Assembly (NCBI GenBank): GCA_965153355.1 | Contig: OZ231126.1 | Coordinates: 34,038,001 to 34,102,000 of the forward strand | Source: Flaccisagitta enflata | Taxonomy: Eukaryota | DNA: 64,000 bases | Direction: 5' to 3' | Shown here: in pieces, positions 11,254 to 64,000 of the stretch | Layout of the letters: each line of letters starts with the position of its first letter | Numbering within the stretch: the stretch's first letter is position 1 | Program-made: the position numbers and the translations under genes | The notes under the pieces: model-generated | Told to the model about the DNA's origin: nothing | The model's database searches: none | What the model saw: the letters and a program-made list of their open reading frames with translations, nothing else

Positions 11254-12191
11254 CAGGTTCGGATGGATTATAAAATGCTATATGTCCCTTCCTAACCCAC
11301 CCCACCCTACAGCTCAAACATCTTATAGTAGAGACATGAAATTTGGTATTGAAAATCAGTGGGGGAATACTTTTTGGGCCCTAAGAGGGTTTTTTCAATT
11401 TCCGCCCCTGAGCAGAAATATGGGGGTGGGGTGGGGTAGCCCCTGAGGATGGGAAAATCTCAAAATGTTTTTTTTTTTTAGATTTTAGATTTTTTCAATC
11501 GGATATGTTGTATTAGGCTCTGATAAATATAAAAAAACTAAAAATTACTTTATGAGTATTTTTTGATTGTAATGTCATTGCACGTACAGATGGATTAACT
11601 TGGAAAACATTTATTAGTTATGAGGGAATCATGTACGAGTGGACAGATAAGTCACCAAATTTTCAACATTATTTGACGTGCCATAATTCATGGTGGAAAA
11701 AAGCTTTTCCACCAAACAGATTTTCCACCATGAATTATGGCACGTCAAATAGTGTCGAAAATTTGATGACTTATCTGTCCACTTGTACATGATTCCCTCA
11801 TAACTAATAAATGTTTTCCATGAGTATTTTTTGTTTTTGAAATACTTCGTTCTAACGTTTAAATGTGCATAACTCTTCAAATTTTGAGAATTATTAAAAA
11901 AAAAACTGTGTATTTACCATGGCATGAACTAGATTTAACCAATACAATTCAAAAATTGGAAAAAATTAAAAAAACATTTTCTGAGATTTTTTAACCCTTT
12001 GGGGTTACCCCACCCCAACCCCCTTATCTCTGCTCAGGGGCGGAAATTGAAAAAACCCTTTGATGGTCCAAAAAGTATCCCCCCACTGACTTCCCATACC
12101 AAAATTCATGTCTCTACTATAAGTGGTTTGGGCTGTGGGGTGGAGTGGGTTAGAAGGTGACATATAGCATTTTATAATCCATCCGAACCTG
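11254..12191. mobile_element. TA-flanked Tc1/mariner-type MITE with long TIRs, inserted in a family B HINE remnant
   Basis: TA|caggttcggatggattataaaatgctatatgtc ... gacatatagcattttataatccatccgaacctg|TA. Confidence 0.9.
11601..11820. mobile_element. Nested 220-bp hairpin element
   Basis: About 100-bp near-perfect arms tggaaaacatttattagttatgagggaatc... / ...gattccctcataactaataaatgttttcca. Confidence 0.85.
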
Positions 12192-12568
12192 TAAGGCCAA
12201 TATCCTAGCTTCATGGCCAAAATCCCAGTCTCAAGGGGCGTCATAGCACCACTTCGAAACTTTTTTTTTCAAAGTGTCATGAACTTCAAAATAGCAGTAC
12301 ATCGATATCGAAATGATGCTAATATGCAAATTCAAACACTTGTTTCATTTTAGTATCGAAGTGGTGCATATCGAAGTGACACAACCTGACTTTAATATAC
12401 ACGAGGTAACATGCATTCACTTAATTCGCAACTTATAAGATTTTTTTTTCCCCCAACCTTCATACACCCGGGGTAAGGCGAGTATTTTTTTCTCCATTCT
12501 CAATTTCGTCCTAAACTCAGATTAAACCTGTTGAGTCATTTTGCTATCCGAGTTGTCATCTTCTTGGT

Positions 12569-19132: not shown

Positions 19133-19617
19133 TTTTTGGGCAGCGGCCCCGAAGGGGACGAAGTCCTGTAGAACACAGGGGACTTTCGTTCGTTCGTTTG
19201 TTTGTTTGTCCGTTCGTCCCCCCCAGGCCCTCTCAGGCCTGAAATCTGCCCTCTCAGGCCTAAAATCTGCCCTCTCAGGCCTGAAATCTGCCCTCTCAGG
19301 CCTTGAATCTGCCCTCTCAGGCCTGAAATCTGTCCTCCCAGGCCTTAGATCTGCCCTCGCAGATTCAAGGCCTGAGAAGGTAGATTTCAGGCCTGAGAGG
19401 GCAGATTTTAGGCCTGAAAGGCCAGATTTCAGGCCTGAGAGGGCCTGGGGGGCGGACGGACGAACGAACGAATGAACGAATGAACGAAAGTCTCCTGTGT
19501 TCTACAGGACTTCGTCCCTTTCAGGGCCGCTGCCCTGCCTCTCATTCCAAGTTTCAACCATGCAAAGCAGGGCAACGGGTATCGCTGACCACGTATTGCC
19601 CTTGGGCGACCTGTTTA
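19133..19617 (+). mobile_element. HINE family B: long subterminal IRs around head-to-head 21-bp minisatellite arrays
   Basis: gggcagcggccccgaaggggacgaagtcctgtagaacacagg is inverted at about 19495-19535; unpaired 3' tail ends in hairpin tgcccttgggcg then cctgttt. Confidence 0.8.
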
Positions 19618-35880: not shown

Positions 35881-36404
35881 TTTTTGGGCAGTGGCCCCGA
35901 AGGGGTAGATGACCTATGCTTTCACACACATGGGGGATTTTCTACTCCTTCTCGTCCGTCCTTCCCCCCTCTGACTCAGATGCTAGCTTCTGCTGCCCAA
36001 ATCCCAACCTCGAGGCCCAAATCCCAGCTTCGAGGCCTCAATCCCAGCCTCGAGGCCCAAATCCCAACCTTGTGGCCCAAATCCCAACCTTGAGGCCCAA
36101 ATTCCAGCCTTGAGGCCCAAATCTCAGCCTCGAGGCTCAAATCCCATCCTTGAAGCCCCAAGACTGGGATTTGGGCCTCAGGGCTGGGATTTGGGCCTCG
36201 AGATTGGGATTTGGGCCTTCAGGCTAGGATCTGAGTCAGAGGGGGGATGGACGGACGAGAAGGAGGAGAAAATCCCCCAAATGTGTGAAAGCATAGGTCA
36301 TCAACCCCTTTGGGGCCGCTGCCCTGCTCCCCCATCAACTTCAACCACAACCTACTTAGGCAGGGCATGGGAACCGCTGACCATCTAACGCTTTTGCGAC
36401 TATT
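35881..36404 (+). mobile_element. HINE family B nested inside a family A copy (35752-36453)
   Basis: Subterminal IRs with 21-bp gaggcccaaatcccagcct arrays in both orientations; the host element resumes at about 36405. Confidence 0.85.
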
Positions 36405-38717: not shown

Positions 38718-38999
38718 GTATTCACGCTAAAGTATCAATATTTTGAGAAATTTTTTGAGGGAACATTGTTTAAAATAAAATTTGCTACAACTTTCCCACG
38801 ATATGTTCTGTAAGAATATCGTTCGTACGGCAGTTGCTAGGGAGCATCACAGGGCTGTCACATATAGTTACGCTCCCTAGCAATGGCTAAACGAGCAATA
38901 TTCTTACAGAATATATTGTGGGAAAGTTGTAGCAAATTTTATTTTAAACAATGTTCCCTCAAAAAATTTCTCAAAATATTGATACTTTATCGTGAATAC
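38718..38999. mobile_element. 282-bp hairpin (foldback MITE)
   Basis: About 130-bp arms gtattcacg.taaagtatcaatattttgagaaa... / ...tttctcaaaatattgatacttta.cgtgaatac. Confidence 0.9.
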
Positions 39000-39021
39000 G
39001 CCTTCCTCCATCGCTACTTAC

Positions 39022-39346
39022 ACGACGGGAGTCGCTTTCCGCCCCGCCGTCATCTTCGGTGTGCCCGTCGGAATTGGCGGCGTCGTCGTTAGCGGCGGCG
39101 TCGTCGTCAGCGGCGGCGCCATCGTCGCCGTCGTTGGCCGTGGCAGTGTCGCCGTGGCGTCTTCGGAATCGCCGGCGTCACTTTCTCGCTCATCACTGGC
39201 GTCCCCAACGGCATCCACTTCCTCGACGTCGTCGACATTAAAGACTATCCCACTGTTGGAGCCGTCGTCGTCGCCGTCGTTGTCGCAGCTGCTGCCACCA
39301 CCATCATCATCCGATTCTTCGTCGTCCTCTTGCGACGACGACGACG

Positions 39347-39436
<90 letters not shown>

Positions 39437-40304
39437 GCCTGATGATGATTGGCGAGGGTGGTCTGTCGTCTTTTAAGATATCGTTAAGTTCCTCTTTCAG
39501 CTTCCTGATCTTTCTTTTTTCATTATCGCGCCAGTTTTCCGCGTCCACACGTCGTTCTTCCACGCGTCGACGATGATCTTCCAACTGCCTTTCCGCAGCC
39601 GTGATTTTCTCGATCAAGTCTTTCTCAGTTTCATCTTCCTCCTGTTTTCTTTCTTTCTCTCCTTCCTCCCACTCCTTGAGGCCGCAGACTGACTCTGCGA
39701 TCTCACTCTTCTTTCCTTCCACCTTCTCCTTTTCTTTCCTTTCTTCCTCCCTTTTTCTTTCCTCCTCTTCCTTTCTTCTCCGTTGCTCTTCTTTTCTTTT
39801 CCGCTCCTATTCCTTTCTTTTTTGTTCCTCTACTTCCTTTCTTATTCGTTCCTCTTCTTCCTTTCTTTTCTTTTCTTCCTTCCTTTTTTCTTCCGCCTTT
39901 TTCTTCTCCTCTTCCTTTTGTTTCTACTCCTTTTTCTTCTCCTCTTTTGCTTTTTTCTGTCGAGAGATCGCCTGTTTGACCTGTAGCTTGTACTTGTCGA
40001 TGATGGCTTGCAGCTGGCTGCAGACCAGGAGCTTTTCTTCCTCCTTTTCCCGACGTTCCTCTTCCTTTTCCCGCATTCGTCTTTCAACTGCAGGATTCGA
40101 AGCCGGTTTTTCGATTTCCTCAGCCACTTCTGCGTCATGAAGAATAACAAGCCCGATCGGGCAACTAGATGCGTCATCTGCGTGATATTAGCAGAGGCGT
40201 AACGGACGGACGGACCGACCGACGGACGGACAGACCCTCTTATAGAGATGTGATGACGCATCTAAAAACGAGACTTTGCGTGAATACACTTTGACATCCT
40301 TCAT
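39022..40304 (-). pseudogene. Disrupted exon encoding an E/K-rich coiled coil, polyQ, acidic segment and Thr/Pro-rich tail
   Basis: ORFs 39924-40127 and 39018-39722 share one frame, with in-frame TAG at 39926-39924 and 39809-39807. Removing the HINE at 40147-40266 gives MKDVKVYSRKVSF-ILHDAEVAEE from ATG 40304. GTAAGT donor at 39021. Confidence 0.65.
40147..40266 (-). mobile_element. 120-bp HINE (agatgcg subfamily) inserted in a coding exon
   Basis: acaagcccgatcgggc hairpin, agatgcgtcatc/gatgacgcatct subTIRs and (GGAC)n. Confidence 0.85.
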
Positions 40305-46954: not shown

Positions 46955-47288
46955 CCGTTTTTTCTCTAAAAAGCGCCCCGGGCGCTTTTAAATTGAAATA
47001 TGAATTTGCTTTTTAACCCTCCAAATAGCGCCCCCTTTGTATTGAAGATAAACTATTATTCGATCCATCTTTTTCATGAAAGGCAATCAAAATCCTGAAT
47101 TTGACTTGAAATAGAGATATTCATTGCATATATCTGTTAGAAAGTCAGTGAAAATAGCTCATTGTGTTGTGTTTTTACATCATTTTACTTTGTATTTCTA
47201 TGCAAATCTTTTCTGAAGAGTGTGACACTAAGAAAAACAATGGGGGGGCGCTTTTTGGAGGGGGGGGCGCTTTATGGAGAAAATACGG
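46955..47288. mobile_element. TA-flanked MITE with CCGT termini (pogo-like); second copy at about 50985-51316
   Basis: TA|ccgttttttctctaaaaagcgcccc ... ggggcgctttatggagaaaatacgg|TA; colinear with the 50985 copy. Confidence 0.85.
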
Positions 47289-47705
47289 TACTATCAACTT
47301 AACCGTAAACGGAACTAACTCAGACAACACGGCCATCGCATTACTAGTCGCGTGCGGTCTTGAAGACTAAAAGACTAAAAGACCTAAAGACCATTAGATA
47401 AAACAACTAAAAGCAGGAGCAGTAATGCAAAAAACGCCCAAAAACGCCGAAAAAAGCTAACAGCGACCGACCGACCAACCGACATAGCGGTTCATAGAGT
47501 TGCGTAGCACGCGACTAAAAAGAAAATATTGAGTTTACGCTAATGGTATGTTAGTTTAGAATGCCTTGATATCTTGGCTATCATTGTCAACATTAACATA
47601 AATTCCTTAGGACTGGTATCGTTTTTTCAAAAGCGTGTCATGGTCGCCATGGTATTTGTCTTGTTCAGTCATAGTCGGCATTGATAAAGATAAAGACTAG
47701 TGTTA

Positions 47706-47766
<61 letters not shown>

Positions 47767-48817
47767 ATTGTTGTTGTTGTTCTTGTTATTACTATTGTTA
47801 TTATTATTATTGTTGTGGTTGTTGTGGTTGTTTCTTCTTTTTTTATTTTGCTGCTTGTGGAAAAAGTTATAAAAAAATCCGCTTTTGTGACCTAATTGTA
47901 AAAAATTTCTGCCCCAAAAGCGCAACTGAGTCGTAATGATTTATAGATAGCCAGCCCATGTCAAATTCCATGCTGCTACACAGGTTTCTCACGGGTCTTT
48001 ATTGAGATAATGCATAAAAATGCAAAAAAAACGCCTTTTACCGCTTTTTAAAAACTCCAAGGTCCATATGCTTTTTGGTTTTGGTTATTTATCATACTGA
48101 AATTTTCAGGGGACATTATACTAATGAAATTCAACATTTCTAGCCCATTATAGCTACTGTGGAATGAAAAAAAGTGTTCTTGAATCGGCGTAAGGCAGAC
48201 TGACATCAAGAAACAGTGCAAGAGACGTACAGTGTATACACTAAGACAATTATGATTTTTTTTCTTATCTTTAGACCATGTTGTCGGAGTGTGTGGAAAC
48301 AGGCTAAAGGATTGTGCACAACATAAACTTCGTTGATCAGTTTTAGCTAGCAATTGATGGGGGATGCTGCTGTATAACAAGTGACGTGGGGTCACAATAT
48401 CATTGTGGATGGGTGGGCAGGGACATGCAGCCCTCATTCATACCCTCCCCCACCCCATGCTTACACACACCAACATTCACAGCTGTATCATCACAAATGC
48501 ACATTTTCATATTTTTAACACAAGTGTGACCAACAGACCAACAGACCGACAAAGCCTCTTATAGAAGTGCGTGTCCGCATCTAAAGATCACTGAAAAAAA
48601 ACGGAAAAAACGGTGGTGGAAAGGAAAAATCGCCGAAAATTGGTGGTGATTGAAAACCCAAGTCACTCCCAACCTTACTTGGGGGCGAAAACTGGTGGCC
48701 CATCAAAAACTCAACAATACACACCATTGACACTGTATTGCTTACACTGCTGACACTGTTCTGCTTACACTGCCTACATTTTTAAGAGTACACTTACACC
48801 ATGAGTTATATTAGATA

Positions 48818-48993
48818 CAGTTGAGCCCTGCTCCAACAAACCAGCTCGTAATGCAATTCTGCCTAAAACAGATACTAATTCTTTGTCCTTTTAATTAGTT
48901 TTTTCTTTTTTTCATATTAGCTATAAAAGAATACCGTCTATAACAGATAAAATTTGTTGGTCCCCTGATATCCTTTAGAACGGGATTTAACTG
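48818..48993. mobile_element. Short degenerate TA-flanked CAGTT MITE (Tigger-like)
   Basis: TA|cagttgagccctgctcc ... agaacgggatttaactg|TA. Confidence 0.55.
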
Positions 48994-49065
48994 TAAACAA
49001 ATATACGTATAAGAGATACAATTTGTTGGTCCCATAGCATCTGTCGCGGATATCATCTGTAATAC

Positions 49066-49329
49066 CTTCTTGCACCGACAATTGCCCCTTTATCGTCTCA
49101 AGTTGTGCTTTCAATTGGTTTTCTTCTCCTTGAAATTCTCGTGTTTTGTTGGCCAAGTGTTCCTTTATCGCATCTGTCTCCTTTTCAAACTCGTCCAATT
49201 TTTTAAGGAAATCCTCTTTGATTCTTTCAAACTGGTGAGAATTCGTGCTGCATTGGTCGATCACTTTGTCTCGGCGCTGATTGTAGGTTGTGATGAAAGG
49301 ACTCAGGTCGTCTCCCATGGCAGATACGT
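49066..49329 (-). CDS. Predicted exon B2: paralogous coiled-coil module (VSAMGDDLSPFITTYNQRRDKVIDQCS...QLETIKGQLSVQE)
   Basis: Acceptor cttgtttgcag|, donor GAAG|gtatta; 264 nt, phase 1-1; the downstream intron motif gggaccaacaaa-tgtatct is shared with B1. Confidence 0.8.
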
Positions 49330-51347
49330 CTGCAAACAAGAACGGAATCACTTTACCACGTCGTATATGAAAATAGGTTGAGCCGTTGAGGGCTCCCATG
49401 TACTGAGGGCACCAACGGGGCCATTAGGAGTTTCCATTTACATCCAAATACTACCTTGACTGGTCAAGGCCTGAATCAATAGACCAGCTAGCTATAAGAA
49501 ACTTTGTCCGTCCGTTGGTCGATTGGTTTGTCAGTTTGTCAATCTGCTACATCGGTCCGTGGTGATCAAGTTGAAAAGTAGAAAAACAATTTTTTTTTTT
49601 GTGAATGTTTGTGAGTGGGGTTGGAAGTTTGGGTGTGGAATCCACTGTGGATGGGAGTTGGACGCACCTGCCCACCCATTCGCAACAATATTGCGACCCC
49701 GCGTTACTTGTTACTTCAAACAATCTTTCAAAAAACTCTTTTACTCTGAAAAAAAGCATCAACTTCGGAGATATGTTACCCCTAAACAAGTTGAGCTTCT
49801 TGCCCTGCACAGTGGGCCGTGATTGAATATTGGTTTAAGAATAACCCCTATCATTAGAAAAATCAGAAGCCACTCTTTCAGTGTTTTCAATTCCCGCAAA
49901 ACAAGTCAGAAAATATGCATCCAACCTGGATGAACAAAAAACCGCCAACAGTTCTCATCCTCCTCCATCATTATTTTGGCGGTCTATGTTTTTTTCAGCT
50001 TCATTATGAAAACAAAAATTAATTAATAATTTAATCTGTGAAGTTGAACCGCATATGAGAGCAAATTTGATAACTTGCTTGTTTAAACCAATGAGTGGCA
50101 TCTGATTTCTCTAATGAGTAGTTACTTGTACAAGTAAGAATTTTCTTTTGCTAAGTTTACAAGAGTTGCGTCCAATTGACTACCAAGGCCGGATACACGG
50201 CTACCAAAGTCATGTGCGGGTGGGCAGGGGCAGTGAAAAAAAACTTTACCCAATCATTTGGGCAGGAGCAGTAATGTGAAAACACCTGTGAATGCCGAAA
50301 TAGCTAACAGGGACGGACGGATGGACAGAGAGATGGACCAACAAACCAACCAACATAGCAGGTTATGGAGTCGCATAGCAGATAGAGAGACAGACAGGCA
50401 GACAGACTTAAATTATCAAAATGACCTCTGAAGTTAGTCTCCACCACCCAGTGTCTCCTCCAATGTTCAAAAATATAAAAAATGCGAAAAAATGCATTTC
50501 TAACGATTTTGTGATGGAAAGACGGATGGACAGATCAACGGACAAACTGACAAATGTACAAAAAAGTTGCTTATAGAGTCGCGTAGTGCGTGACTTATAA
50601 TACAAGTCTCACTATCTAGTGACATGACAGCAATGGCCAACATAGTGGATCTTGATTTTTTTAGTTGCATGCAACTCTACAACCCGCATTGTCCGTCCAT
50701 CAGCCGGTCAGTCCGTTGGTCCGTCTAACTTTACTTGTTTACTTTTTTGACATTTATGTTTAATTATTGCTTTACTCATCCCGACCAAATAGTGGGCCTT
50801 ATCACTGCCCACCGCATGCAACTGGGGTAGCTATGTATCCGGCCTTGTTTGTGTTCAGCTCTGCGTGTTGAATTGTATTGGTATACTATCAAAAACTAAG
50901 CCAAACTATAAATAGCTTGTAGTCTTGTAGAGTATGGTGTTGTGTGCTCTGTCGCTTATGACGAATAAAAGATATTATTATAACTACTTTTTCTAAAAAG
51001 CGCCCCGGGCGCTTTTGAAATTGAAATATGACTTTGCTCTTTAACCCTCCAATTAGCGCCCCCTTTGTATTGTAGATGAACTGTTATTCAGTCTATCTTT
51101 TTCATGAAAGGCTATCAAAATGCTAAATTAGACTCAAAATAGAGATATTGATTGCATATATCTGTTTGAAAGTAAGTAAAAATGGCTTATTGTGTTGTGT
51201 TTTATCATCATTTTACTTAATATTTCTGTCCAAATCTTTTTTGAAGAGTGTGACATTAAGAAAAAAAGAGGGGGGGCGCTTTTTGGAGGGGAGGCGCTTA
51301 ATGAAAAAAATATGGTATGTGCTATGCTATGCATTGATATTACTTAC

Positions 51348-51671
51348 AACTTTTATCTCCATCATCATTGTAATGGTTATGGACGTCTTCAATGACATCG
51401 CCATCATCATCGCCGTCGTCATCTTCATGGTCGTCATCATCGCCATCATCACTATGGCTATCGCCTCTGTTGTCGCTATAGCTATCGCCGTTGCTATCTT
51501 CATCTCTATTGCCGCTGCTATCGCTGTAGTCATCATCAACTTTATCTCCATCATCAGTGTCATCGTCATCATAAGTGTCGATGGCGCCGTCCTTGCCATC
51601 GGCTTCATCACTCCTGCAGGGTCTTTGTTGTTGACAGGTTTCGAGCTCTGAGTGCAGCTCCTCCATTTTTG
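51348..51671 (-). CDS. Predicted exon C: end of coiled coil, QQQ, then Asp-rich acidic domain (KMEELHSELETCQQQ...DDDDTDDGDKVDDDYSD...)
   Basis: Acceptor catttcctag| and canonical donor |gtaagt; 324 nt, phase 1-1; joins B1 in frame (ALK-A-KMEEL). Confidence 0.75.
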
Positions 51672-51913
51672 CTAGGAAATGATTATAATCTATGCATATG
51701 TAATAGCTTGTACCTAAATGACAAAAAGCAATAAAATCAACATTCTACGAGCAGGTCATGTTGTGGGACTGTCTCAGGCTTCTATTGAAATCAATATTGG
51801 CTTTAAAATTCTACTTTTAGGTGGCCGCGCCTTACCTTCTATAAACCCTACCGCTATAGGAACTCCAAAATTTCAAAGTTCTCAAATTCCAATTCTGACT
51901 GGAATCTGCAGAA

Positions 51914-52098
51914 ACAAGGCCGGATACACGGCCATCAGTTGCGGACGGGTGGGCAGGGGCGGATATGCGCGTTTTCCCACTTTTCGACTCGATGGTTACG
52001 GACGGACGGACGGACGGACAGACCGACGGATGGACCGACAGACGGACGGACGGACGGACGGACAAAGCCTCTTATAGAGTTGCGTGTCCGCAACTAAA
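51914..52098 (-). mobile_element. HINE family A, young copy
   Basis: Nearly identical to 2151-2311 outside the microsatellite. Confidence 0.9.
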
Positions 52099-53362
52099 AA
52101 CTGTCAATTGAAAGTGTTTTCCTTTTTTTGATATTCCAATTAGAGGGTGGTCAAAAGTGTTGTCAAATATTGCTTAACATATCTTTCCTTTTAATTTCTT
52201 TATAAAATCATTGAACTTACCTTCTTTAAAAATCTTAAGCGTGGATTTTGATAATGATCCCGAAGGAATTTTGAAAAAAGAAAAGCACTTTCAACAGACA
52301 GTTTTTCATGGAGATTTCAAATCTGCAGTCAAAATTTTGATTTGAGCAATTTGAAATTTTTAGTTTCCAATTGACCCATGGGAAGTTCAAGGTAAGGCGC
52401 GGAAAGCAAGATGTAAACTTTTGAAGCTGAAAATGATAACAATAGAAGCCCAAGACAGCTCCACAACATGAACTGTTCATAGAATTTCGACTTTTTTGGT
52501 TTTAGTCATTTCAGTACAGGCTAATATGTAAATGCCTAATCGCGATTTTACTCCTTGTCACACTCAGTGGTCTCAGTTATTTCATTAACCCTTTTTGCCC
52601 GGTCTACCGCCTCCCCCCTTCCCACTAACACCTGGCTACTACTGGCTAGTATGTTATGTCACACCGTTGAGGGTCCTAAAAGCATAGAGGATATGCACCC
52701 AGCTGCATCAAATTTGAAATTAAGTTAGCTAGTTAGTGGTTCTTGCATGTAGAACCGGCGTTAGGACAATTTGGTTGCGCCCCGCCGCCCCGGAAAACAT
52801 CAAGCATGAAAAAGGCAAACCTTACACAGTGGCGTATTTTGCGCAGATTGAAATTAAATTTTGGTAAGGGGAAGATTATATATCTTGAGCAATCATCTTC
52901 CCTGGGAAAATGGATGATAAAAAAGGTGCAAAAAAGGAGTTCTCATCACCGTCAATGACAGACCATACTACACTTTTTGTTGACTTTGATATGGGAACAA
53001 TTGTATTGTATTGAAAGCAATCAATTTTTCTTATCGTTTTACAAAACATTTTAGTAAAATATACATTATGTAAATGAGTTTTGGCTTTAATATGTATTCC
53101 TGATGAATTGAAGCAATTTTTGTCAACATACTTCAAAGTTGTGACGTTAAATAGAAGCCAGATGTTATTTACTTTTTACCCTTTTACTCTTTACTATTCT
53201 CTTTTTACCCTGGTGGGTCCTATCAGTAATGAGTAACTGAGATCCGCGGATACTAGATGATTATTCTCGTTTTTTTGCATCTTATACAGGCACTGGCCGA
53301 AATTTGTCTAGAATAGATACACTTTGTTGGTCCCTTGGTTTGGCAGATTTAATGTGTATTAC

Positions 53363-53605
53363 CTTTTAGCGCTAATAACTGTTGGCGTTTTGTCACAAGT
53401 TGTGCGTTCAATTGGTTTTCTTTATCTTTGAATGATTGTGTTCGGTTGGCCAACTCTTTCTTCATCTCATCTGCCTCCTCATAAAACTGGTCCATCTTCT
53501 TGACAAAATCTTCTTTTGTTCTTTTCAAATTTTGAAAATTCGCGCTGCATTGGTCAATCACTTTGTCCAGGCTCTGATTGTAGTTTGTGATGAAAGGACT
53601 CAGGT
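53363..53605 (-). CDS. Predicted exon B1: coiled-coil module (DLSPFITNYNQSLDKVIDQCS...QLNAQLVTKRQQLLALK)
   Basis: Acceptor cttgtttgcag|, donor AAAG|gtaata; 243 nt, phase 1-1; about 57% amino-acid identity (46/81 by hand) to exon B2. Confidence 0.8.
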
Positions 53606-53789
53606 CTGCAAACAAGAGCCGAATCACGTTATCAGGTCATATACCAATAAATTACAAAAGCGGCTATCGCCGATCGAGAAAAAGTCGTAAACCTTCTCAC
53701 TCTGATTAGAGACAATTCAAACTGGCTATTCCCCTAATTACAAGCTGCTAGAGTGCCATTTGTGGAGGCAAGTTCAGTCAAATCAGTCA

Positions 53790-56051
53790 ACCAGGCTAGA
53801 TACACGGCTAACCAAGTCATGTGCAAGTGGATAGGGGCCCCATTTGAGGTCAATAGAGCATTTGGAAAGGAGCAGTGAGTTTAGAGACCACAGAAACATA
53901 AAATGGTGAGACCTAAAAACCGACCAACCAAACAACGGTCAAAGAGGTTGTAAAGCCACGCAGAATGCAACTTCTATCTAGCTGATAAATATGCGGATAC
54001 CTACTGATGTTCAAAGAAGCTAAACTTCAATATCCAATCTAAAATATGAAAGCTGATCAACAAACTATGACAAAAAGTCTTCCATTCAAGACCAAGTAGA
54101 GCTCAATGGCTCAATCCATTTCCAAATGACAGCGTTTTAAAGAACAAGGCCGGATACATGGCAGGACAGTCGCGGAAGGTTTGTCAGGGGCAGTAATGCA
54201 AAAACGGCTTGCAATTCAGAAATGTGATGGACCAATGGCTTGACCGACACGGCAAGGTGTAGAGTCGCATGTCCGCGACTACAAAAGAAATCAAAATCAG
54301 AGGTTTTCAGTTCATATTGAGAATGGTCAACCTTTATACAAAGAGATTTTTTCAAGCTGTCCATATATTTTAAGTCGCGTGCTACGCAACTCTACACCCC
54401 CCTTTGTCGGTCCGTCCGTTGGGCCGTCTGTCGGTCCGTCCATCCGTCTGTCCGTCTGTCCATCTGTCGGTCCGTCTGTCCATCCGTCACAGTTAACTTT
54501 TTTGGGGTTTTTGCGGTTTTTGGCCTCACTGCTCCTGCCCAAATAATATGGTGACCTCTATTAAGGCCCCTGCCCACCCACACGCAACTGGGGTAGCCAT
54601 GTATCCGGCCTTGTTGAGCTAGATGGTACAGTATGATCCATCTCAACTGTAACATTTCACAATGTCGTTCAAAAAGTAATAGACATTGTTCAATTCTGAA
54701 AAAAACATATGAAAAGTAATTGTTTAGTATCTAATGAAACTTTTTTCATATAAGAAATTCTATAGCAAATTATGCTAAAGAAGGTGATATTTCTCTTTTT
54801 AGTCGCGTGTTCCGCGACTCTACACCCCGTTTTGTCCATCTGTCGGTCCATTGGTCCGTCCGTCAGTCTGTTGGTCTATCTGTTGGTCCATCCATTGGTC
54901 CGTCTGTTCGTCACACTTTACTTTTTTTATGGTCTTTGGCCTAACTGCTCCTGCCCAAATGATCTAGTGACCTCTTATATGGCCCCTGCCCATCCACACA
55001 CAACTGGGGTAGCCATTTAGCCCATCTTGTTTTCATTAAACTATATTCAACTTCAATTTTTTCTTACTTATACACTACATCATTATATTTCATTTTTGAG
55101 ACCTATCTGACATCAAAAGCTAAAAACTGTTAGAAAATTAAAGCAATCTTGAAAAAAAAGTTTATTTAAAAAAACAAAAAAATGGCTTAATTTGCAAAAT
55201 ATTTTTTGTTTTTTCACATATTTAGAGGATTTGATTTTCTTTCTATGTCCTGGGCTTCCATCTTCATATAAATGCCGAACTATTACTTATCCTTCAAAAT
55301 TAGGTTATCTTTATTTTTTTTTTTATACTGTCATAAATTGTTACAATCGAGATGGATCATACTGTAAAAAATGCATTTCCTATATTAGAGCAATTTTTTG
55401 ACAAAACTTTGGTCAGTTTTTAGAAAGTTTTTATCCATGAAGTCAGGTCTGCAACTTTCATAAACCCACTGACGCACTGAATTTGTTGCTAGCATGCACA
55501 ATTATCAAAGTTCAAATAGACTTCCACTTACTCAATATTTCATTTTGGGGTAATAATGTAAAAAAACAAAAAAAAGATTTATAAAATCAAAACTGTTTAT
55601 GGTAAAGACCTCTATTTGGCGCCATTTGAAATTAAAAATTTAACCTTTTCTTAGCTATGAATTAGAAAAAAATGGCTAAAATTCCCAAAGCAAGATAATT
55701 TTTTTAATTTACACCCCATGTTTCAAAAAGTCTAATTACATAATTCAAATTGTTTCCAACAAGATAGACTAAGTTGAGGGCCCCCATGGGTCATGGATCA
55801 CATCAAAATTTCTTGTTAGTATTCATCATATAACACATGATATCTTTAGTCGCCTGCTATGCAACTCTAGACACCGCTTTGTCGGCCTGTCCGTCTGTCA
55901 TTCTGTCGGTCGTTCTGTCGGTCCTTCACACTTCACTTTTTTTGGGTTTTGTTGTCTTTGGCCTCACTGCTCCTGCCCAAGTGATCATGTGACCTCAAAT
56001 ACGGCTTCTGCCCACCCGCATGCAACTGGGGTAGCCGTGTATCCGGCCTTG
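53790..56051. mobile_element. Five intronic HINE copies (about 53790-53970, 54144-54285, 54369-54614, 54797-55030, 55845-56051)
   Basis: Termini and microsatellites recognisable in each; mixed orientations. Confidence 0.8.
54629..55364. mobile_element. TA-flanked Tc1/mariner-type MITE containing a HINE
   Basis: TA|cagtatgatccatctc.a.tgtaaca ... tgttacaatcgagatggatcatactg|TA. Confidence 0.85.
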
Positions 56052-56192
56052 TTTTCATATCATGATGATAAAATTATGATAACAGGCCTCCTCTTTAATG
56101 GTCAAAAATATTCAGTCTCGTCAAGACCGTTTTTTTGGAGGTCCTGCTCTATATTCAAATGGCTGGATCTCGATTTGGACATAGTTTACTAC

Positions 56193-56387
56193 CTCTGCTT
56201 GTGACTGATGCTGTTTTTGTTGTTGCTGATGGTGGTGATGTTGTTGTCTTTGATGGTGCCTTTGTTGTCAATGATGGTGGTGACCTCGTTGTTGTTGTTG
56301 GTGACCTAGTTTTTGATGTTGCTAACACCGATGATGCACCTGATGATATTGTGATATTTGGTGACATTGTAGAGACCAAAGAAAAAT
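56193..56387 (-). CDS. Predicted internal exon A1: Ser/Thr/Pro-rich mucin-like module (xFSLVSTMSPNITISSGASSVLATSKTRSPTTTTRSPPSLTTKAPSKTTTSPPSATTKTASVTSR)
   Basis: Acceptor catgtag| and donor AG|gtagta on the minus strand; 195 nt, phase 1-1. The paralogous copy at 57754 differs only by frame-preserving indels (-18 and +6 nt). The acceptor choice is the weakest part of the model. Confidence 0.6.
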
Positions 56388-56680
56388 CTACATGGTTTGG
56401 AGGAAATGACTATGCACTGTTCAATCAGGAAGGAAGATAGGTGCTGTAAGTATAAACAGGAAATGTTGGGATAATTTGTATGTTTTGGTCTAGGTAGTAT
56501 ATGCAGCAACAGAAGTCATGCCACAACACAATATCTTAAAGGATTAAGATGCAATGCACAATTTTGATTGTATAAAAGCATTCCTTTTAAAGAATCTAGA
56601 ATCTAAAAATTGCAAAATACATGTAGCAAATTAATCATTTTCACAAGTGATTTTTTCTTATCTAAAGCAGATGAAGTACA

Positions 56681-57296
56681 CACTGTGCTTTTAAAACAAT
56701 TCTGAGTGAAAAGTCATATAACTGTGGGTTTTTCTGCATTTTTGAGCATTATTAGGGTGTAAGAGCATGTAACTAGCAAAAACAAAATCATTCCCTGAGC
56801 GCTTTTTGAGTGATCTTCAAAATCAGAAAAAAATAGACCTATTTTCAATGCAGATTCTTCTGGGATGTGTTGACTAAATTCCTGAATACATATTGTTAAT
56901 CTATGCAAAATTCCCTTTCATTTGATAGGTCGCACTCTATATTTTTGCAAAAAATTGAAATTTTCATTTTTTGAGTCACCGTTACAAAAAAGTAACGGTG
57001 GCTCAAAATATGAAAACCTAATATCTATATAAAACCATATAGTGTGACCTATCAAATGAAAGGAAATTTTGTATAGAATAAAAATATGGAATCAAAAAAT
57101 GAGTCAATACAATTCATTAGAATTTGCATTAAAGATAGGTTTAATTTTTTTTTATTTTGAAGATTATTCAAAAAGCGCTCGGGGAATGATTTTGTTTTTG
57201 CTAGTTACATGCTCATACACCCCAATACTGCTCCAAAAGGCAGAAAAACCCACAGTTATATGACTTTCCACTGAGAATTTTTTTAAAAGCACAGTG
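56681..57296. mobile_element. Palindromic MITE with CACTGTG...CACAGTG termini and a 4-bp TACA target duplication (Chapaev-like)
   Basis: Long TIRs spanning most of the element; the empty site gaagTACAgtgggacc is visible in paralogous sequence at about 58383 and 63854. Confidence 0.85.
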
Positions 57297-57753
57297 TACA
57301 GTGGGACCCTGGCTCCATAACAATGCCTTCAAAGGTGTCACGCCTTTAAAGGGCAAGATACTCAAGTCAAAAAATTACTCAGGCATTTGTAATTTCAAAA
57401 ATTACCAAGCTTAGCAGCCCCTTCTTTGAAAGTGACTTGCCTTTTTAGGTCAATTTTATTGGGCCCTTTAACTTATCTCCCCTTTAACGAAGGTCAATTT
57501 CTAGTATTTGATAATAAGACAGAATAATAACAAGTTGAATAATGAAAATTATCATCAAACAATTATTTGCAAAGAATTAGCATAATACATTTGAATTTCT
57601 TGTTAGTATTTATCTCATGGCAAATATGATGTTTTCCATATCATGATGATAAAACTATGTCAACAGGCCCCCTCTCAGGTCATTAAGACCATTAACCCGA
57701 GGTCCTGCTGTATATTCAAATGCTTGGATCTTGATTTGAAGACATTTCAATAC

Positions 57754-58097
57754 CTCTGCTTGTGACTGATGTTACTTTTGTTGCCATAGATTGTGATAAT
57801 ACTGTTGTTGTTATCTTTGATGGTGCCTTTGTTGTCAATGATGGTGGTGACCTTGTTGTTGTTGGTGGTGACCAAGTTTTTGATGTTGCTGACACCAATG
57901 ATGCACCTGATGACATTGTAGAGACCAAAGCACAAGGTCGGATACACGGCAATCCAGTCGCGCATGGTTGGGCAGGAGCAGTAATGCAAAAACTGCCTTG
58001 AATTCAAAAATGTGACGGACGGACGGATCTACCAACCAACCAACCTACCAACCGACCAACACGGTAAGGTGTAGAGTTGCAAGTCCGCAACTAAAAT
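57754..58097 (-). pseudogene. Tandem-duplicated copy A2 of the mucin-like exon, interrupted just after its acceptor by a HINE (57932-58095)
   Basis: Aligns with 56193-56387 including both intron flanks; donor AG|gtattg; the HINE is absent from copy A1. Confidence 0.6.
57932..58095 (-). mobile_element. HINE family A inserted in exon copy A2
   Basis: Both termini; empty site at 56375-56395. Confidence 0.9.
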
Positions 58098-58944
58098 CTA
58101 CATGGTTTGGAGGAAATGACTGTGCACTGTTCAATCAGGAAGGAAGACAGGTGCTATAAGTACAAGCAGGAAATGTTGGGATAATTTGTATGTTTTGGTC
58201 TGGGTAGTATATGCAGCATCAGAAGTCATGCCTCAATACGATATTTTAAAGGCTTTAGTTGCAATGCACAATTTTGTTTGTATAAAAGCATTCCTTTAAA
58301 AGAATCTAGAATCTAAAAATTGCAAAATACATGCAGCAAATTAATCGTTTTCACAAGTGTTTTTTTCTTATCTAAAGCAGATGAAGTACAGTGGGACCCC
58401 GGCTCCATAACAATGCCTTTAAAGTGAGTCCGGTCACATTTTTGAAATTATGACTTTTTATGGTTTTTAAGGTAATTTAAGGTACTCTAGGGTATCTTAG
58501 AATACTTTAGGGTACTTTAGGGTACTTTAAGGTGCTTTCAGGTATTTTCGGGTAATTATAGGTACTTTTGATATTATTGATAAATTTTTAGTATTTTAGA
58601 GTACATATGGGTATTTTTGAAGATTTTTGATTAATTTTGGGTACTATAGGGTACTTTAGGGTGCTTTAGGGTACTTTTGGGTACTTAAGTTATTCTAGGT
58701 ACTTAAAGTACTTTAGGGTACTTTCAGGTATTTTCGGGTAGTTATAGGTACTTTTGATGTTTTTTGATAAATTTTTAGTATTTTTGGGTATTTTTGGGTA
58801 TATATGGGTATTTTTGGGTATTTTTAGGTATTTTGGACATATGTATTTTTTGAGTAATTTTGTGCATTGGTTTTAAAACGTGGCTAATGTTATTAAGCGT
58901 AATTGTTTGAGAGCATGTAAACATAAAGCTTCATTAAGATCCCT

Positions 58945-59580
58945 TGTAAGAGTATGTAAGAGTATGTAAGTGTGTAAGTAAGTATGTAATTATGTAAGTA
59001 CGTAAGTATGTAAGTATGTAGGTAAGTATGTAAGTATGTAGGTAAGTATGTAAGTAAGTAAGTATGTATATAGAGTATGTAGGTAGGTAAGTATGTAAGT
59101 ATGTGAGTATGTAGGTAAGTATGTAAGTATGTAAGTATGTAAGTAAGTCTATGTGGGTATGTCAGTATGTAAGTATGTGATAGAGTATGTAAGTATAAAG
59201 TAAGTATGTAGTATGTAGTATATGGTATGTAGTAGGTAGTATGTGTAAGAGTATGTAGGTAAGTATGTATGTGAGTAAGTATGTAAATAGTATGTATGTA
59301 AGTATGTAAGTAGATAAGTATGTAAGTATGTGTGAGTATGTAGGTAAAATAATAACAGAGTCTGTAGCAAGTAGAGTATGTAAGTAAGTATGTAGGTATG
59401 TAAGAGGTAATGTGAAAGTATGTAAATTATGTAAGTAAGCATGTAAGTATCTTAATTATGTAAGGTATGTGAGGTATGTGGTAAGTATGTAAGGAGTATG
59501 TGAAAGTATGTAAAGTATGTCCCAGTACATAAGTATGTTAGTATGTAGGTAAGTATGTAAGTATGTTGGTAAGTATGAAA
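58945..59580. repeat. Degenerate (TAAGTATG)n satellite, continuing at 62900-63800
   Basis: Read directly; split by the foldback insertion at a TA. Confidence 0.95.
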
Positions 59581-59594
59581 GTCGTAGTAGAGTA

Positions 59595-60501
59595 CAATGC
59601 GGAATCAAAGAACTGGTGATAGGAGAAGCCATATCTCTCCAAGTACAAGGATATGAGATATGAAAATTTTCTGTGGTGTGCACCTATATTTCCCACAACC
59701 CCCGTAAGGGTTTGGAGCTATTCCGGGCAGTTTTTGTTTTTGGTTGTCAAATTTTTATTTCTTAAAAAATCATATTGTAGGCCAAATTTGTTTCAAAATT
59801 TCATTTTTATGTTACATGTAGTTAATACCCAGAGCTACAAATTTCATTTTTTGAAAAAATATTTTCAGCCAATATTTAAGAGAACGACACTAATAAAAAC
59901 AAAATTTCAAAAAAATGAAAAATTGCTATATTTTCTAAAATAATTGGCTTAACATAATGTTTATATTCAGTAATTACTGAGAACCCTCCATGTGTATGCA
60001 AAATTTCAACTCCCATACTTGAATTTTAAAGGAGTTATGGGATTTTGAAATTTTGATAATTTTTGGTAAAAAACATTTTTTCTTATAAAATTTTTTTTTG
60101 TGAACCATTTTTCATGAAATTTCATAGACAAACAAAGTAATTGATATTTTTTTGCTTCCAAAAAAAATTTGGGCACTGCGACCCCCTTAAAAAAAAATTT
60201 TCTCAAGAGTATGGTGTTATTTTCTAGGTTGAATAAAAACTGTTCCTGTTATCGGATCAACTTCATTTTTGGAGGGATTATCAACCTACATCTGCAGTAA
60301 CTATGTTTAAAATTTCAAGTAAATCGGATTAGTCGTTCCGGAAATATTCAAGTTCAAAGTGGAAAGGGCGAGCTAAAATCACTGTTTCTGTGGTATTTTA
60401 ATGATAAGTCTTTATAGCTACAAGTGTCTTAAAAATGAAATAAAGTCATTCCAAAAGTGTTGCAAATAGGTGTGGAATATGTCCCTGCAGCATAACCAAC
60501 C

Positions 60502-60534
<33 letters not shown>

Positions 60535-62899
60535 GGATTCCACAGTCTCTAAAAATACTTCAAAAAAACTGCAAATACCTTTTTGGCATTTTTCTACATT
60601 TTAGGGTGTAACGCATGATAAACGATATCCCCATCCCCAGTACACATGTGTGTGTTATCATAAATGTTCAGTTTTCCCTCAAAAATTTATTCATTTCCAC
60701 CACGCTTTAAGCACAAAAATTTTGGTTTAAAATGGCAAAAAATGCGATTTTTAGAATTTTTTAAGCTGTTTTTGGGGTGTAATGCATATTAAACAATATC
60801 CCCATCTCCAAACTTTTTGTGGCATAGTAGTCCATGATAGGACAGATTCTCCCCAATTTAATCATTTCCGTCCGCTTTGGGCATAAAATTTTGGTTTAAA
60901 ATGACAAAAATGCCAATTTTGAATTTTAAGCTGTTTTTGGGGTGTAATGCATATTAAACATTATCCCATCCAATTTTTGTGGCATAGTAGTCCATGATAG
61001 GACAGATATTTTAAAAAAATTATTAAGCCTAAATCTGACGCTTTAAGCACAATAATTTTGGTTTAAAATGGAAAAAAATACGGAAATGAATAAATTTTGG
61101 GGGACATCTGTCCTATCATGGACTAATACATGCTACAAAAAAATTTGGAGGATGGGGGATGTCGTTTAACATGCATTACACCCCAAAAACAGCTTAAAAA
61201 ATTCTGAAAATCACATTTTTTGCCATTTTAAACCAAAATTTTGTGCTTAAAGCGTGATTTGAAATGAATAAATTTTGGGGAGATCTGTCCTATCATGGAC
61301 TACTATGCCACAAAGAATTTGGAGATGGGATATTGTTTAATACAGCATTACACCCTAAACAGCTTAAAAAAAATCTAAAATCGCATTTTGCCATTTTAAA
61401 CCAAAATTTTTGTGCTTGTAAGTGTGATGGAATGAATAAATTTTTGGGGGGATATCTGTTCTATCATGGACTACTATGCCACAAAAAATTTGGGGATGGG
61501 GATGTCATTTAATATGCATTACACCCCAAAAACAGCTTTAAAAATTCAAAAAATTGTATTTTTTTGGCTGGTCAAACCAAAATTTCAGTATAAAGGATGG
61601 AAATGAATAACCTATGGGGGACATCTGTCCTATCATGGACTACTATGCCACAAAAAATTTGAGGATGGGGATGTCGTTTAATATGCGATACTCCCCAAAA
61701 ATGTGGCAAAAAATGCCAAGAAAAGGCATTGTTTGCAGTTTTTTGGTGCCTATTTTTAGTCGCGTGCTACGCGACTCTACACCCCGCTTTGTCGGTCCGT
61801 CCGTCCGTCCGTCGGTCCGTCGGTCCGTCACACTTTACTGTCACACTTTACTTTTTCGGCGTTTATGGGGTTTTTGGCTATACCGCTCCTGCCCAAATGC
61901 TCCACTGACCTAAAATATGGCCCCTGCCCACCCGCACGCGACTGGGGTAGCCGTGTATCCGGCCTTGTTTTAGAGACTGTGAAATCCAAAAATTTTGGTT
62001 GGTTATGCTGCAGGGACATATTCCACACCTATTTGCAACACTTTTGGAATGACTTTATTTCATTTTTAAGACACTTGTAGACACTTAAAGACTTATCATT
62101 AAAATACCACAGAAACAGTGATTTTAGCTCGCCCTTTCCACTTTGAACTTGAATATTTCCTGAACGACTTATCCGATTTACTTGAAATTTGAAACATAGT
62201 TACTGCAGATATAGGTTGATAATCCCTCCAAAAATGAAGTTGATCGGATAACAGGAACAGTTTTTATTCAACCTAGAAAAATAGCTTAATTTTAGCACTC
62301 TTGAGAAAAAAATTTTTTTAATGGGTCATAGTGCTCCAATTTTTTTGGAAGCCAAAAATATCAATTACTTTGTTTGTTCATGAAATTTCATAAAATGGTT
62401 CACAAAAAAATTTATAAGAAAAATGTTTTTTACCAAAATTATCAAAATTTCAAACCTATAACTCCTTTTAAAATTCACATGAGTTGAAATTTTGCATACA
62501 CATGGAGGGTTCTCAGCAATACTTCCATGCCAAAAATTACTATGCTAAGCTAATCATTTTAGAAATTATAGCAATTTTTCATTTTTTTGAAATTTTGGGT
62601 TTTTAGTGCCATTTCCTTAAAAATTGGCCAAAAATATTTTTCAAAAAATGAAATTTGTAGCTCTGTCCATTGTTTACATGTAACATAAAAACAAAATTTT
62701 AAAACAATTTTTGCCCACAATAGGATTTTAAGAAGAAAAAATTTTTGAGTAACCAAAACAAAATGCCCGGAACAGCTCCAAACCTCATTGGGTGGGGGTA
62801 CCATAGGTGCACACCACAGAAAAATTTCAGATCTCATATCCTTGTAATTGAAGAGATATGGCTTCCCTCCTTATCACCAGTTCTTTGATTCCGGTACTG
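59595..62899. mobile_element. 3.3-kb foldback element, TA-flanked, with inverted internal ~180-bp tandem repeats
   Basis: Left arm ggaatcaaagaactggtgatagg... mirrors right arm ...cttatcaccagttctttgattccggtactg; symmetry continues to a centre near 61075; a HINE is inserted in the right arm only. Confidence 0.9.
61755..61968 (+). mobile_element. HINE family A in the right arm of the foldback
   Basis: Both termini; the mirror arm at about 60545-60560 shows the empty T-run target. Confidence 0.9.
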
Positions 62900-64000
62900 T
62901 AAGTATGTAAGTATGTGAGTATGTAGGTAAGTATGTAAGTATATAGTAAGTATGTATGTAGGTATGTGGGCATGTAAGCATGTGTTAAAGTATGTATGAT
63001 GTAAGTATGTAGCATGTATGGCAATCACATAAGTATGTAAGTATGTAGCACAATGTATGTGTAGGTAAGTATGAAAGTAAGTAGTATGGCATGTAAGTAG
63101 GTAGGCATGTACATGTGGAGTTATGTATGTAAGATGTATAAGTATGTAAGCAGGTATGTAGGTATGTGGGCATGTAAGCATGAAGTACATAAGTATGTAA
63201 GTATGTAAGTATGTTACATGTATATGTAAGCATGTGTTACGTAAGTATGTTAGTATGTGAGCATAGGTAAGTAAGTATGTGGGCATGTGTTATGTAAGTA
63301 AGTGTAAGTATGTAAGTAGGTAAGTGTATGTAAGTATGTGAATATGTAGGTGAGCATGTAAGTATGTAAGTACATGTAGGCATGTGGCAAGTATGGGCAA
63401 GTATGTATAAGCACATGTATATATGTATGTAACTATGTATTATGTAAGTATGTAAGTATGTATGTATGTATGAAAGTATGCAGGCAGCATGTATGTATGT
63501 ATGTGTGTATGTACGTTTGTATGTATGGCATGTATAGCATGTATATGCAAGCAGCATGTAAGTATGTATAAGTATAATAAGTATGTAAGTATGTAGTATG
63601 TATGTAAGTATGTAAGTAAATATGTAAGTATGTATGTATGTAAGTATGTAAATATGTATGTTAAGTATGTAGTATGAAGTTATGTAGTTGTGTGTAGTAT
63701 GAAGTTGCGTAGTTTTGTGTAACTAAATATGTAAGTATGTTAAGTATGTAGTATGAAGTTATGTAGTTGTGTGTAGTATGAAGTTGTGTAGTTTTGTGTA
63801 ACTTAGCACGCGACTGTTGGCCTGTTGGGCTTGTTTTCTTATCTAAAGCAGATGAAGTACAGTGGGACCCCGGCTCCATAACAATGCCTTTAAAGGAGTG
63901 ACGCCTGTAAAGGGCAAGATACTCAAGTAAAAAAAAACCTCTATTTGGCGCCATTTGAAATTAAGAATTTAACCCTTTCTTAGCTATGAATTTTAAAAAA

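Follow-up and report, generated by a model that had tools for sequence, protein, structure and literature searches.

The four minus-strand segments A1, B1, C and B2 (Table 1), lying within the 64,000-nt stretch of Flaccisagitta enflata DNA that was analysed (the window), raise the question of whether they are spliced into one transcript and, if so, what kind of protein it would encode. As originally predicted, each segment is preceded by AG and followed by GT, has a length divisible by three and is in phase 1-1; A1, B1 and B2 are open in this frame only, and C has a second open frame. Joined by their coordinates, the segments give 1026 nt without a stop, as claimed, though the count is 341 complete codons and not 342. 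The joined A1–B1 boundary recreates the motif DLSPF found in B2, a detail that was also foreseen.

The three predicted junctions (49329/51348, 51671/53363 and 53605/56193) were present in three of four RNA runs (X1, X2 and X3; two studies, P1 and P2), each within one contig per run (depth 12–17), and all carry CT..AC ends in the RNA contigs aligned to the window. Joint 53605/56193 was flagged 'between: not known', yet its record coordinates are contiguous. The raw polyA run X6, of which about 6% of the reads were sampled, yielded none of the joints and hardly any depth over the exons. A1-B1-C-B2 is a real spliced part of a gene, and looks like the 3′ portion of a larger one. The exons had also been described as skippable cassettes, which the RNA joints listed do not bear out, as none of them skips an exon.

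Table 1. Features of the locus and arrangements of exon B elsewhere in the genome (positions are those of the window unless a contig is given)
Feature	Position	Strand	Description
Exon A1	56193..56387	-	195 nt, phase 1-1, Ser/Thr/Pro-rich, mucin-like; donor joined to B1 in X1, X2 and X3
Exon B1	53363..53605	-	243 nt, phase 1-1, coiled-coil module
Exon C	51348..51671	-	324 nt in assembly, phase 1-1, Asp-rich tract
Exon B2	49066..49329	-	264 nt, phase 1-1, second coiled-coil module
Intron A1-B1	53606..56192	-	2587 nt; RNA contigs
Intron B1-C	51672..53362	-	1691 nt; RNA contigs
Intron C-B2	49330..51347	-	2018 nt; RNA contigs
A0	57754..58097	-	duplicate mucin exon, SINE-like repeat inserted about 5 nt past the acceptor
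Presumed upstream intron	58098..64000	-	repeats; no exon candidate found
Exon A-1	G000:C1:34103633-34103827, outside window	-	intact mucin exon; 96% DNA identity to A1
Nine tandem two-exon F5/8-type-C domains	G000:C1:34105707-34126624, outside window	-	90 + 378/381 nt
C5 gene			C-type lectin/mucin/EGF-B-C
C4 gene			EGF-beta module-B-C
C2 genes (twice)			signal-like peptide-beta module-B
C3 gene and C7:50.29M gene			B-short C-C-type lectin
C7:22.70M gene			B-long coil

Ser and Thr make up 52% of exon A1. No joint was seen in the RNA contigs at its acceptor, 56387; instead, an internal in-frame acceptor at 56339, 48 nt inside A1, is joined to an A-type 3′ end in one X1 contig (depth 20), as expected if the upstream exon A-1 splices to A1. 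A-1 lies 9.2 kb from A1 and 1.9 kb from the last F5/8 exon, and A1 and A-1 differ by six non-synonymous changes and one synonymous change. Between them lies the SINE-split copy A0, with its acceptor at 58097; a candidate cryptic in-frame exon is left in it (57906-57754, 153 nt, no stop), and its 3′ end has no RNA depth in X1 or X3. The mucin region consists of only two or three 64-residue Ser/Thr-rich exons, in contrast to the long PTS region of gel-forming mucins, and Pfam scans of the exons found gave no vWD, C8 or TIL domain.

The nine F5/8-type-C (discoidin) domains upstream were missed in the module list of the original prediction. All of their exons have AG/GT boundaries and are in phase 1-1, and the two of nine copies scanned match PF00754 with 38.8 and 37.5 bits (gathering cut-off 28.2). 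The copies are 90–99% identical to each other, with pN/pS = 0.29 over copies 1–7 and dN/dS = 0.33 for copy 8 against copy 9. We infer from the shared arrangement that the window exons sit downstream of this array in one gene: the resulting 23-exon model (5439 nt, 1812 codons) has no stops, intact splice sites and a common strand and phase, and contains no membrane helix (highest 19-residue hydropathy 0.89). For the first exon, scans gave only weak candidates within 184 kb, and acceptor scans, searches with the terminal exons of paralogues and profile scans of 184 kb yielded no convincing candidate for the last. The RNA contigs continue 302 and 358 nt past B2, and immediately after it they read G and then a base that is not T. 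A repeat-rich stretch at 47858 was dropped as the last exon, as it starts with C, and a charged open reading frame at 40187-39021 has internal stops and no link to the gene.

A single F5/8 copy as query had no match in longer proteins or in solved structures; the F5/8 profile did find matches, the best of the solved structures being of CBM32 type. CBM32 modules and F-type lectins belong, like the heads, to the family PF00754. The F-type lectin fucose motif is His...Arg-x-Asp-x4-(Arg/Lys) (PMC5712786), and galactose-binding CBM32 modules use a His, Arg, Asn triad and a stacking aromatic residue (PMC5291390). The heads of this gene differ from both, reading Glu-x26-Arg-His-Gly, whereas many paralogues read His-x26-Arg-x-Asp; the His, Asp and Asn kept by many paralogues are missing from all nine. 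When scored with a His–Arg spacing of 26 (24 in PMC5712786), the full F-type motif occurs in none of the nine copies and none of the 14 paralogues examined, and its final basic residue is absent from every copy examined. In all nine copies the Arg of the CBM32 triad is kept, the His is replaced by Glu (a position set by motif and not by structural alignment) and the Asn loop is absent. Given the lack of His, Asp and Asn, sugar binding by these heads appears doubtful. It is conceivable, if rather improbable, that the CBM32-like head family was acquired from a microbe and then gained introns.

The coiled-coil exons B1 and B2 encode proteins 59% identical to each other, B1 being seven codons shorter at its 5′ end. 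Both contain one Cys and an N-x-T sequon (NRT in B1, NKT in B2), in agreement with the original prediction, and B1 has an additional NQS. Exon B is predicted to be all-alpha, and the hydrophobic period is 3.55 in both copies, a value reached by none of 1000 shuffles of each, consistent with the heptad periodicity of a coiled-coil neck; the C2 copies of B lack exactly seven residues, or one heptad. The module was said to belong to no recognised family, and the searches concur: Pfam gave no match reaching a cut-off in any of the seven proteins scanned, solved structures gave 23 generic coiled-coil matches (best E-value 0.008) and none to a named neck, Atlas searches gave unnamed or low matches for B2 and none for P0009 residues 48–152, and a word-index search with B2 found 0 of 76 among longer proteins. 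Of the 14 profile matches, four (P0010-P0013) were discarded as coils or repeats of a generic kind. The dN/dS between B1 and B2, put forward earlier as a check on the gene, is 0.55, with an interval of 0.27–1.24 that includes 1 (by a method without transition correction), and alone would not decide whether the gene is real; values over six B pairs are 0.40–0.55.

Exon C begins with a short coil end and Cys-x5-Cys, followed by the Asp-rich tract. It measures 468, 456 and 468 nt in three RNA contigs and 324 nt in the assembly, and each of these lengths keeps the frame. Paralogous exons share the head and donor of C, and those of C4 and C5 retain the acidic tract as well. The Cys pair and the phase are common to the C-type exons of 324, 285, 213 and 75 nt; in the 75-nt form, from the C3 gene, the tract is nearly gone. 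Reading through the donor of C gives Cys-Lys-stop, as it does in C4, but C was ruled out as the last exon, since in C5 the donor is retained and no such stop follows it, and since C is spliced to B2 in the RNA contigs.

At least nine phase 1-1 copies of exon B were found at eight loci of the same genome, with B sharing genes with C-type lectin, EGF and beta domains of no matching family, often followed by a short coil-CxxxxC exon (Table 1); this sharing with C-type lectin and EGF genes had escaped the original prediction. Candidate phase-1 acceptors and donors flank all five other genomic copies checked, two near-identical twins being left out. There are six arrangements of B in the one genome, mostly deduced from exon order and not from reads. 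With phase-1 flanks (established by RNA for B1 and B2) and unrelated architectures, B has the properties of a shuffled class 1-1 module. The paralogous coils are 26–56% identical to B1, and a tree of B, from which six near-duplicate rows were left out, has a single well-supported split, so no order of duplication events is claimed. One recently duplicated copy of the C5 gene contains no exon B at all; B may be dispensable in that gene, or the copy may be defective. The relatives P0006, P0007, P0009 and the C2 genes have hydrophobic, signal-like starts (judged by eye). The final exon of both the C4 and the C5 paralogue encodes nine residues and no membrane helix, an ending backed for C4 by the P0014 transcript. 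The sequence that follows the C7:22.70M coil resembles a fibrinogen-like domain by eye and has no Pfam or structure match; Pfam supports neither a cadherin domain in P0007 nor a PAN domain in an exon of C5. The 441-nt module of C4 matches the F5/8 profile with a probability of 21.7%, a lead only.

We propose, with a probability of roughly 55%, that the gene encodes a secreted multivalent discoidin–mucin protein assembled into oligomers by an exon-shuffled coiled-coil cassette that is restricted to this lineage. The four window exons would form the stalk and tail of an extracellular glycoprotein of at least 1812 amino acids, in which nine discoidin-type beta-sandwich heads would be followed by a two-exon O-glycosylated mucin spacer, B1 with its terminal Cys pair, an Asp-rich flexible linker and the second coil, B2. 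B together with the head of C would form a parallel homo-oligomeric coiled coil, its chains locked by inter-chain disulphides. The oligomer would gather several arms of nine domains each into a binder of high avidity, which the mucin spacer would keep off the surface, and B2, past the polyanionic linker of variable length, would provide a second assembly point at which such bundles could be cross-linked into a network of mucus, surface coat or adhesive. The cassette, B with or without the head of C, would be a class 1-1 oligomerisation unit restricted to this lineage and spread by exon shuffling. A secreted role is plausible, since relatives with the same coil begin with hydrophobic signal-like peptides. 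The lineage-specific secreted matrix, mucus or adhesive protein originally suggested is borne out in its class 1-1 gene and unnamed module, and in its secretion plausible by analogy with these relatives.

A soluble agglutinin or pattern-recognition protein of innate immunity, of the same build and clumping microbes in mucus or body fluid, is a less likely product. B is also present in C-type lectin genes, the solved structures closest to the head profile are sugar-binding CBM32 modules of bacteria, and coiled-coil lectins function in invertebrate immunity (PMC8878817); however, the nine heads are homogenised and not diversified, as seen in their mutual identity and low pN/pS, and their canonical sugar residues are replaced. 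The composition of exon C (35% Asp, net charge –37) and the persistence of its tract in C4 and C5 would suit a calcium-binding mineral or cuticle matrix protein with the Asp-rich exon as its working part, an idea close to the Ca2+ role first assigned to it. This is quite improbable, as a tract ranging from 324 to 468 nt across assembly and RNA contigs, and close to absent in C3, behaves like a spacer.

The window exons might also constitute a gene of their own, apart from the discoidin array, or the missing last exon might anchor the protein in the membrane: no read was placed across the F5/8-to-A-1 joint, and A-1 is distant from A1. Against this improbable alternative stand the strand and phase common to all 23 exons, the proximity of A-1 to the last F5/8 exon, the A-to-A1 joint in X1 and the helix-free endings of C4 and C5. 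A transcribed but decaying, functionless duplicate could account for the repeat-broken A0, the dN/dS interval including 1 and the excess of non-synonymous changes between A1 and A-1; it is scarcely credible, given that 23 of 23 exons are free of stops with intact splice sites, that the length variants of C are in frame in all three contigs, and that only 8% of simulated neutral copies of B1 carrying 58 substitutions remain open.

The head of the proposed discoidin–mucin protein is reminiscent of sea-urchin nectin, and its neck of coiled-coil lectins. Nectin of Paracentrotus lividus is a self-associating protein with an adhesive or matrix role, made of a signal peptide and six tandem FA58C domains only (PMC10057474), and is likewise a large extracellular protein of tandem discoidin domains. 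Here there are nine heads with 90–99% identity, compared to 47–55% among the six of nectin, and a tail with mucin, two coiled coils and an acidic tract, none of which is described for nectin in the available text of PMC10057474. Lophotrochozoan lectins (FReD, C1qDC and C-type) have coiled-coil necks that possibly oligomerise (PMC8878817), and the coil likewise adjoins a recognition domain in P0009 and the C3 and C7 genes, which have a signal-coil-lectin build. In this genome, by contrast, one homologous coil exon serves several types of head, before or after them. A literature search found no description of a discoidin-mucin-coiled-coil build, and the available part of a preprint on arrow-worm adhesive cells (10.1101/2025.01.31.635879) does not mention discoidin, mucin or coiled coil.

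Class 1-1 modules of metazoans are mainly beta, the mainly-alpha fraction being negligible (PMC8001218). Like them, exon B is a symmetric phase-1 exon that is duplicated, inserted and lost as a unit in proteins of the extracellular kind, but it is predicted to be all-alpha and is apparently lineage-restricted. A shuffled extracellular discoidin/mucin protein is an ordinary type of gene for animals; less ordinary is a young, unnamed alpha-helical module that is duplicated (B1/B2), occurs in at least six arrangements and is absent as a whole exon from one recent duplicate. If B oligomerises autonomously, it would offer a tractable case of how a lineage comes to build multivalent proteins of its surface or mucus, and might serve as a natural oligomerisation tag. 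More tentatively, B with the C head may be a mobile all-alpha cassette invented by the lineage and distributed among its lectin-like genes, and, as the coils are homologous, chains from different genes could co-assemble. Though unlikely, this would mean that discoidin, C-type lectin and EGF heads are mixed combinatorially, with the double-coil protein as network cross-linker.

Coiled coils beside recognition domains are also found in the collectin neck and tetranectin, where they may oligomerise the domain, and COMP/thrombospondin, matrilin, tenascin and fibrinogen have disulphide-ringed coiled coils ending in a close Cys pair. No sequence match to these disulphide-ringed coils was found among the 23 solved-structure rows. 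The coil of B and C also ends in a Cys pair, though with the spacing C-x4/5-C, and the likeness serves as a lead only.

The AG/GT boundaries, lengths and phase of the four minus-strand exons A1, B1, C and B2 were confirmed on the sequence as originally predicted. Joining them by coordinates recreated DLSPF at the A1-B1 joint and gave a stop-free frame, with 341 complete codons rather than the 342 claimed. Four RNA runs were aligned to window positions 47850-58450; the RNA bearing on the finding comes from marine metatranscriptomes. All three predicted junctions were detected, in one contig each from runs X1, X2 and X3 (two studies), with CT..AC ends and a depth of 12-17. The contigs carry no strand or expression-level information; the intron polarity of the joints agrees with the minus strand. 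Exon C measures 468, 456 and 468 nt in the three contigs compared to 324 nt in the assembly, all in frame. In one contig of X1, an A-type donor is spliced to an acceptor inside A1, at 56339, which yields an exon of 147 nt that keeps the frame; two contigs extend 302 and 358 nt beyond B2 into sequence outside the aligned region. The cassettes had been proposed to be skippable, but no exon-skipping joint occurs among the RNA joints listed. The raw polyA run X6 (~6% of reads examined) gave no joints and essentially no exon depth; because its aligned reads were mostly 90-95% alike and continued into unlike sequence, it says little either way.

The dN/dS ratios were obtained by the Nei-Gojobori method, with bootstrap intervals, and lend modest support since the method has no transition correction. 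A ratio away from 1 was anticipated for B1 versus B2: the value is 0.55, with an interval (0.27-1.24) that includes 1. Five other B pairs gave 0.40-0.53 (interval below 1 in three), and heads 8 and 9 gave 0.33; the mucin exon pair was uninformative. The four exons belong to a real gene, and it is the RNA joints, not dN/dS, that carry this case.

Coordinates of the gene, its paralogues and neighbouring features (G000 assembly; the window is C1:34038001-34102000, and plain numbers are positions in it)
Feature	Position	Strand	Remarks
A1	56193-56387	minus	mucin-like
B1	53363-53605	minus	coiled coil
C	51348-51671	minus	coil end, Cys pair, Asp-rich tract
B2	49066-49329	minus	coiled coil
A0	57754-58097		mucin copy
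Third mucin exon	C1:34103633-34103827		intact, just past the window
Head exons	C1:34105707-34126624		nine tandem pairs, 90 nt + 378/381 nt, all AG/GT, phase 1-1
C5 gene	C5		C-type lectin, mucin, EGF exons, then B-C
C4 gene	C4		EGF exons and 441-nt module, then B-C
C2 genes (two)	C2		signal-like peptide, further region, then B (one heptad short)
C3 and C7 genes	C3; C7:50.29M		B, 75-nt exon C (length checked in C3), C-type lectin
C7 gene	C7:22.70M		B opens 330-residue coil-rich frame
441-nt module	L014:1109-1549	minus	phase 1-1 exon of C4 gene
~111-nt array	L003:1740-2520 (C5 ~79.2248-79.2256M)		B acceptor and first codons, repeated many times in tandem
~1-kb units	C5:79238-79247k (L010, L044)		at least five in tandem, upstream of C-type lectin exons
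gag/pol-like ORFs	C4 ~44785-44801k (L045, L046)		long, among EGF exons of C4 gene
Cys/Trp-containing domain	L070:1845-3548 (C7 ~22.696-22.698M)	minus	after long coil
MITE-like elements	56680-57297, 59600-62893, 11249-12196, 19138-19535, 35886-36324		palindromic or inverted-repeat
330-nt inverted repeat	50988-51317; 46961-47290		88% alike; just after exon C; 1.8 kb after B2
Charged frame	39021-40187	minus	polyQ, acidic, Thr/Pro-rich; internal stops
280-nt palindrome	38718-38999		adjoins charged frame
24-nt repeats	7248-7667	minus	Asp/Ala/Thr; candidate 140-codon open frame
EGF-like frames	C1 ~34022.4k and 34015k (L039, L072)	minus	isolated, 15-23 kb below window start

Both B1 and B2 show a hydrophobic period of 3.55, reached by none of 1000 shuffles. 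Searching the 794-Mb, nine-contig assembly with B1 gave six matches among 16 candidates, and the database protein P0009 as query added three loci, bringing the B exons to at least nine at eight loci. Phase-1 splice candidates flank all five other copies checked, and the neighbours of B differ between loci. Common to the exon-C-type exons are the end of a coil, a pair of cysteines (Cys-x4/5-Cys) and the splice donor. The terminal exon of the C4 and C5 genes comprises nine residues, the C4 ending being backed by the transcript-derived protein P0014. At C1:104.4M, the C5 gene has a recent duplicate from which 3.8 kb is missing, the entire B exon with it; the duplicate's EGF and C exons stay in frame. 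When 1.84 billion representatives were searched with the B profile, 14 matched (ten clear B modules, four generic). None of the ten clear clusters carries a name, in line with the earlier failure to recognise a family, and several of them are exons of this very genome picked up in metagenomic DNA. Part of an exon-shuffling review (PMC8001218) describes class 1-1 modules as chiefly beta and the alpha share among them as negligible; B looks like an exception, one restricted to a single lineage.

The long head exons upstream are 90-99% identical in protein, and both copies scanned (of nine) scored above the cut-off of the Pfam F5/8 type C model (38.8 and 37.5 against 28.2 bits). Across the genome, 32 of 44 candidates scored are head matches, nine of them in this discoidin-mucin gene; 14 of the remaining 23 were aligned. 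A His 26 residues ahead of an invariant Arg is kept in 13 of these 14 paralogues and an Arg-x-Asp-x4-Asn continuation in eight, while all nine heads of the gene read Glu, Arg-His-Gly and Ser at these positions. The head profile matched 20 solved-structure sequences (E up to 10), the top ones being a bacterial GH92 and several CBM32 modules; muskelin is, as far as we recognise, the sole animal discoidin-type protein among them. Against the protein database, 45 of 4337 candidates matched, the best being unnamed short-contig proteins; the six that carry an organism name are all from bacteria, in a search biased against long animal proteins. P0041, an unnamed 377-residue protein from a public run, has two domains with the family's distinctive C-terminal motifs and no Cys pair, and is a possible lead on the family's origin.

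We favour, at a probability of roughly 0.55, a secreted chain in which a mucin spacer would carry the nine heads, B and the head of C would bundle chains, disulphides would lock the bundle, and B2, past the acidic linker, would provide a second assembly point. Oligomerisation is suggested by the periodicity, the conserved cysteines, the heptad-sized deletion and a likeness to coiled-coil lectins (in part of PMC8878817). Such coiled-coil-necked lectins are the closest working likeness at the stalk, and sea-urchin nectin, with six FA58C domains (excerpt of PMC10057474), at the head. The gene falls outside nectin, F-type lectins, canonical CBM32 and gel-forming mucins, and this build was not found described in the literature searched (main texts, few subscription journals).

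An immune agglutinin is a doubtful alternative: given their residues, the nine heads lack both the His/Arg/Asn galactose site of CBM32 (excerpt of PMC5291390) and the fucose motif borne by F-type lectins (excerpt of PMC5712786). A split or membrane-anchored gene is still less likely. The 23-exon model, which joins the nine head pairs, the third mucin exon and the four window exons by coordinates, runs 5439 nt and 1812 codons with no stop and no hydrophobic helix; its first and last exons were sought by genomic scans and not found. Slightly less probable again is a mineral matrix protein, which would draw on the acidic tract, a stretch varying among exon-C-type exons from almost nothing to ~90 residues. 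A decaying duplicate is very improbable. The mucin copy A0, inside the window, is broken up by a repeat that follows closely on its acceptor, and keeps only a cryptic in-frame exon.

Around the paralogues, the ~111-nt array could give alternative 3' splice sites, and at least two of the ~1-kb units contain 69-nt phase 1-1 Thr/Ser/Pro exons. The gag/pol-like ORFs are presumably Bel/Pao-type LTR retroelements. The Cys/Trp-containing domain gave no Pfam or structure match and is fibrinogen-like by eye; the 441-nt module had no Pfam match and weak F5/8-profile similarity (probability 21.7%). Simple repeats and short interspersed elements are abundant in the window, and some MITE-like elements are nested within duplicated mucin units. 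A search for wider collinearity around the two 330-nt repeats found none. The charged frame is possibly a decayed mobile-element ORF, and the EGF-like frames probably belong to another gene.
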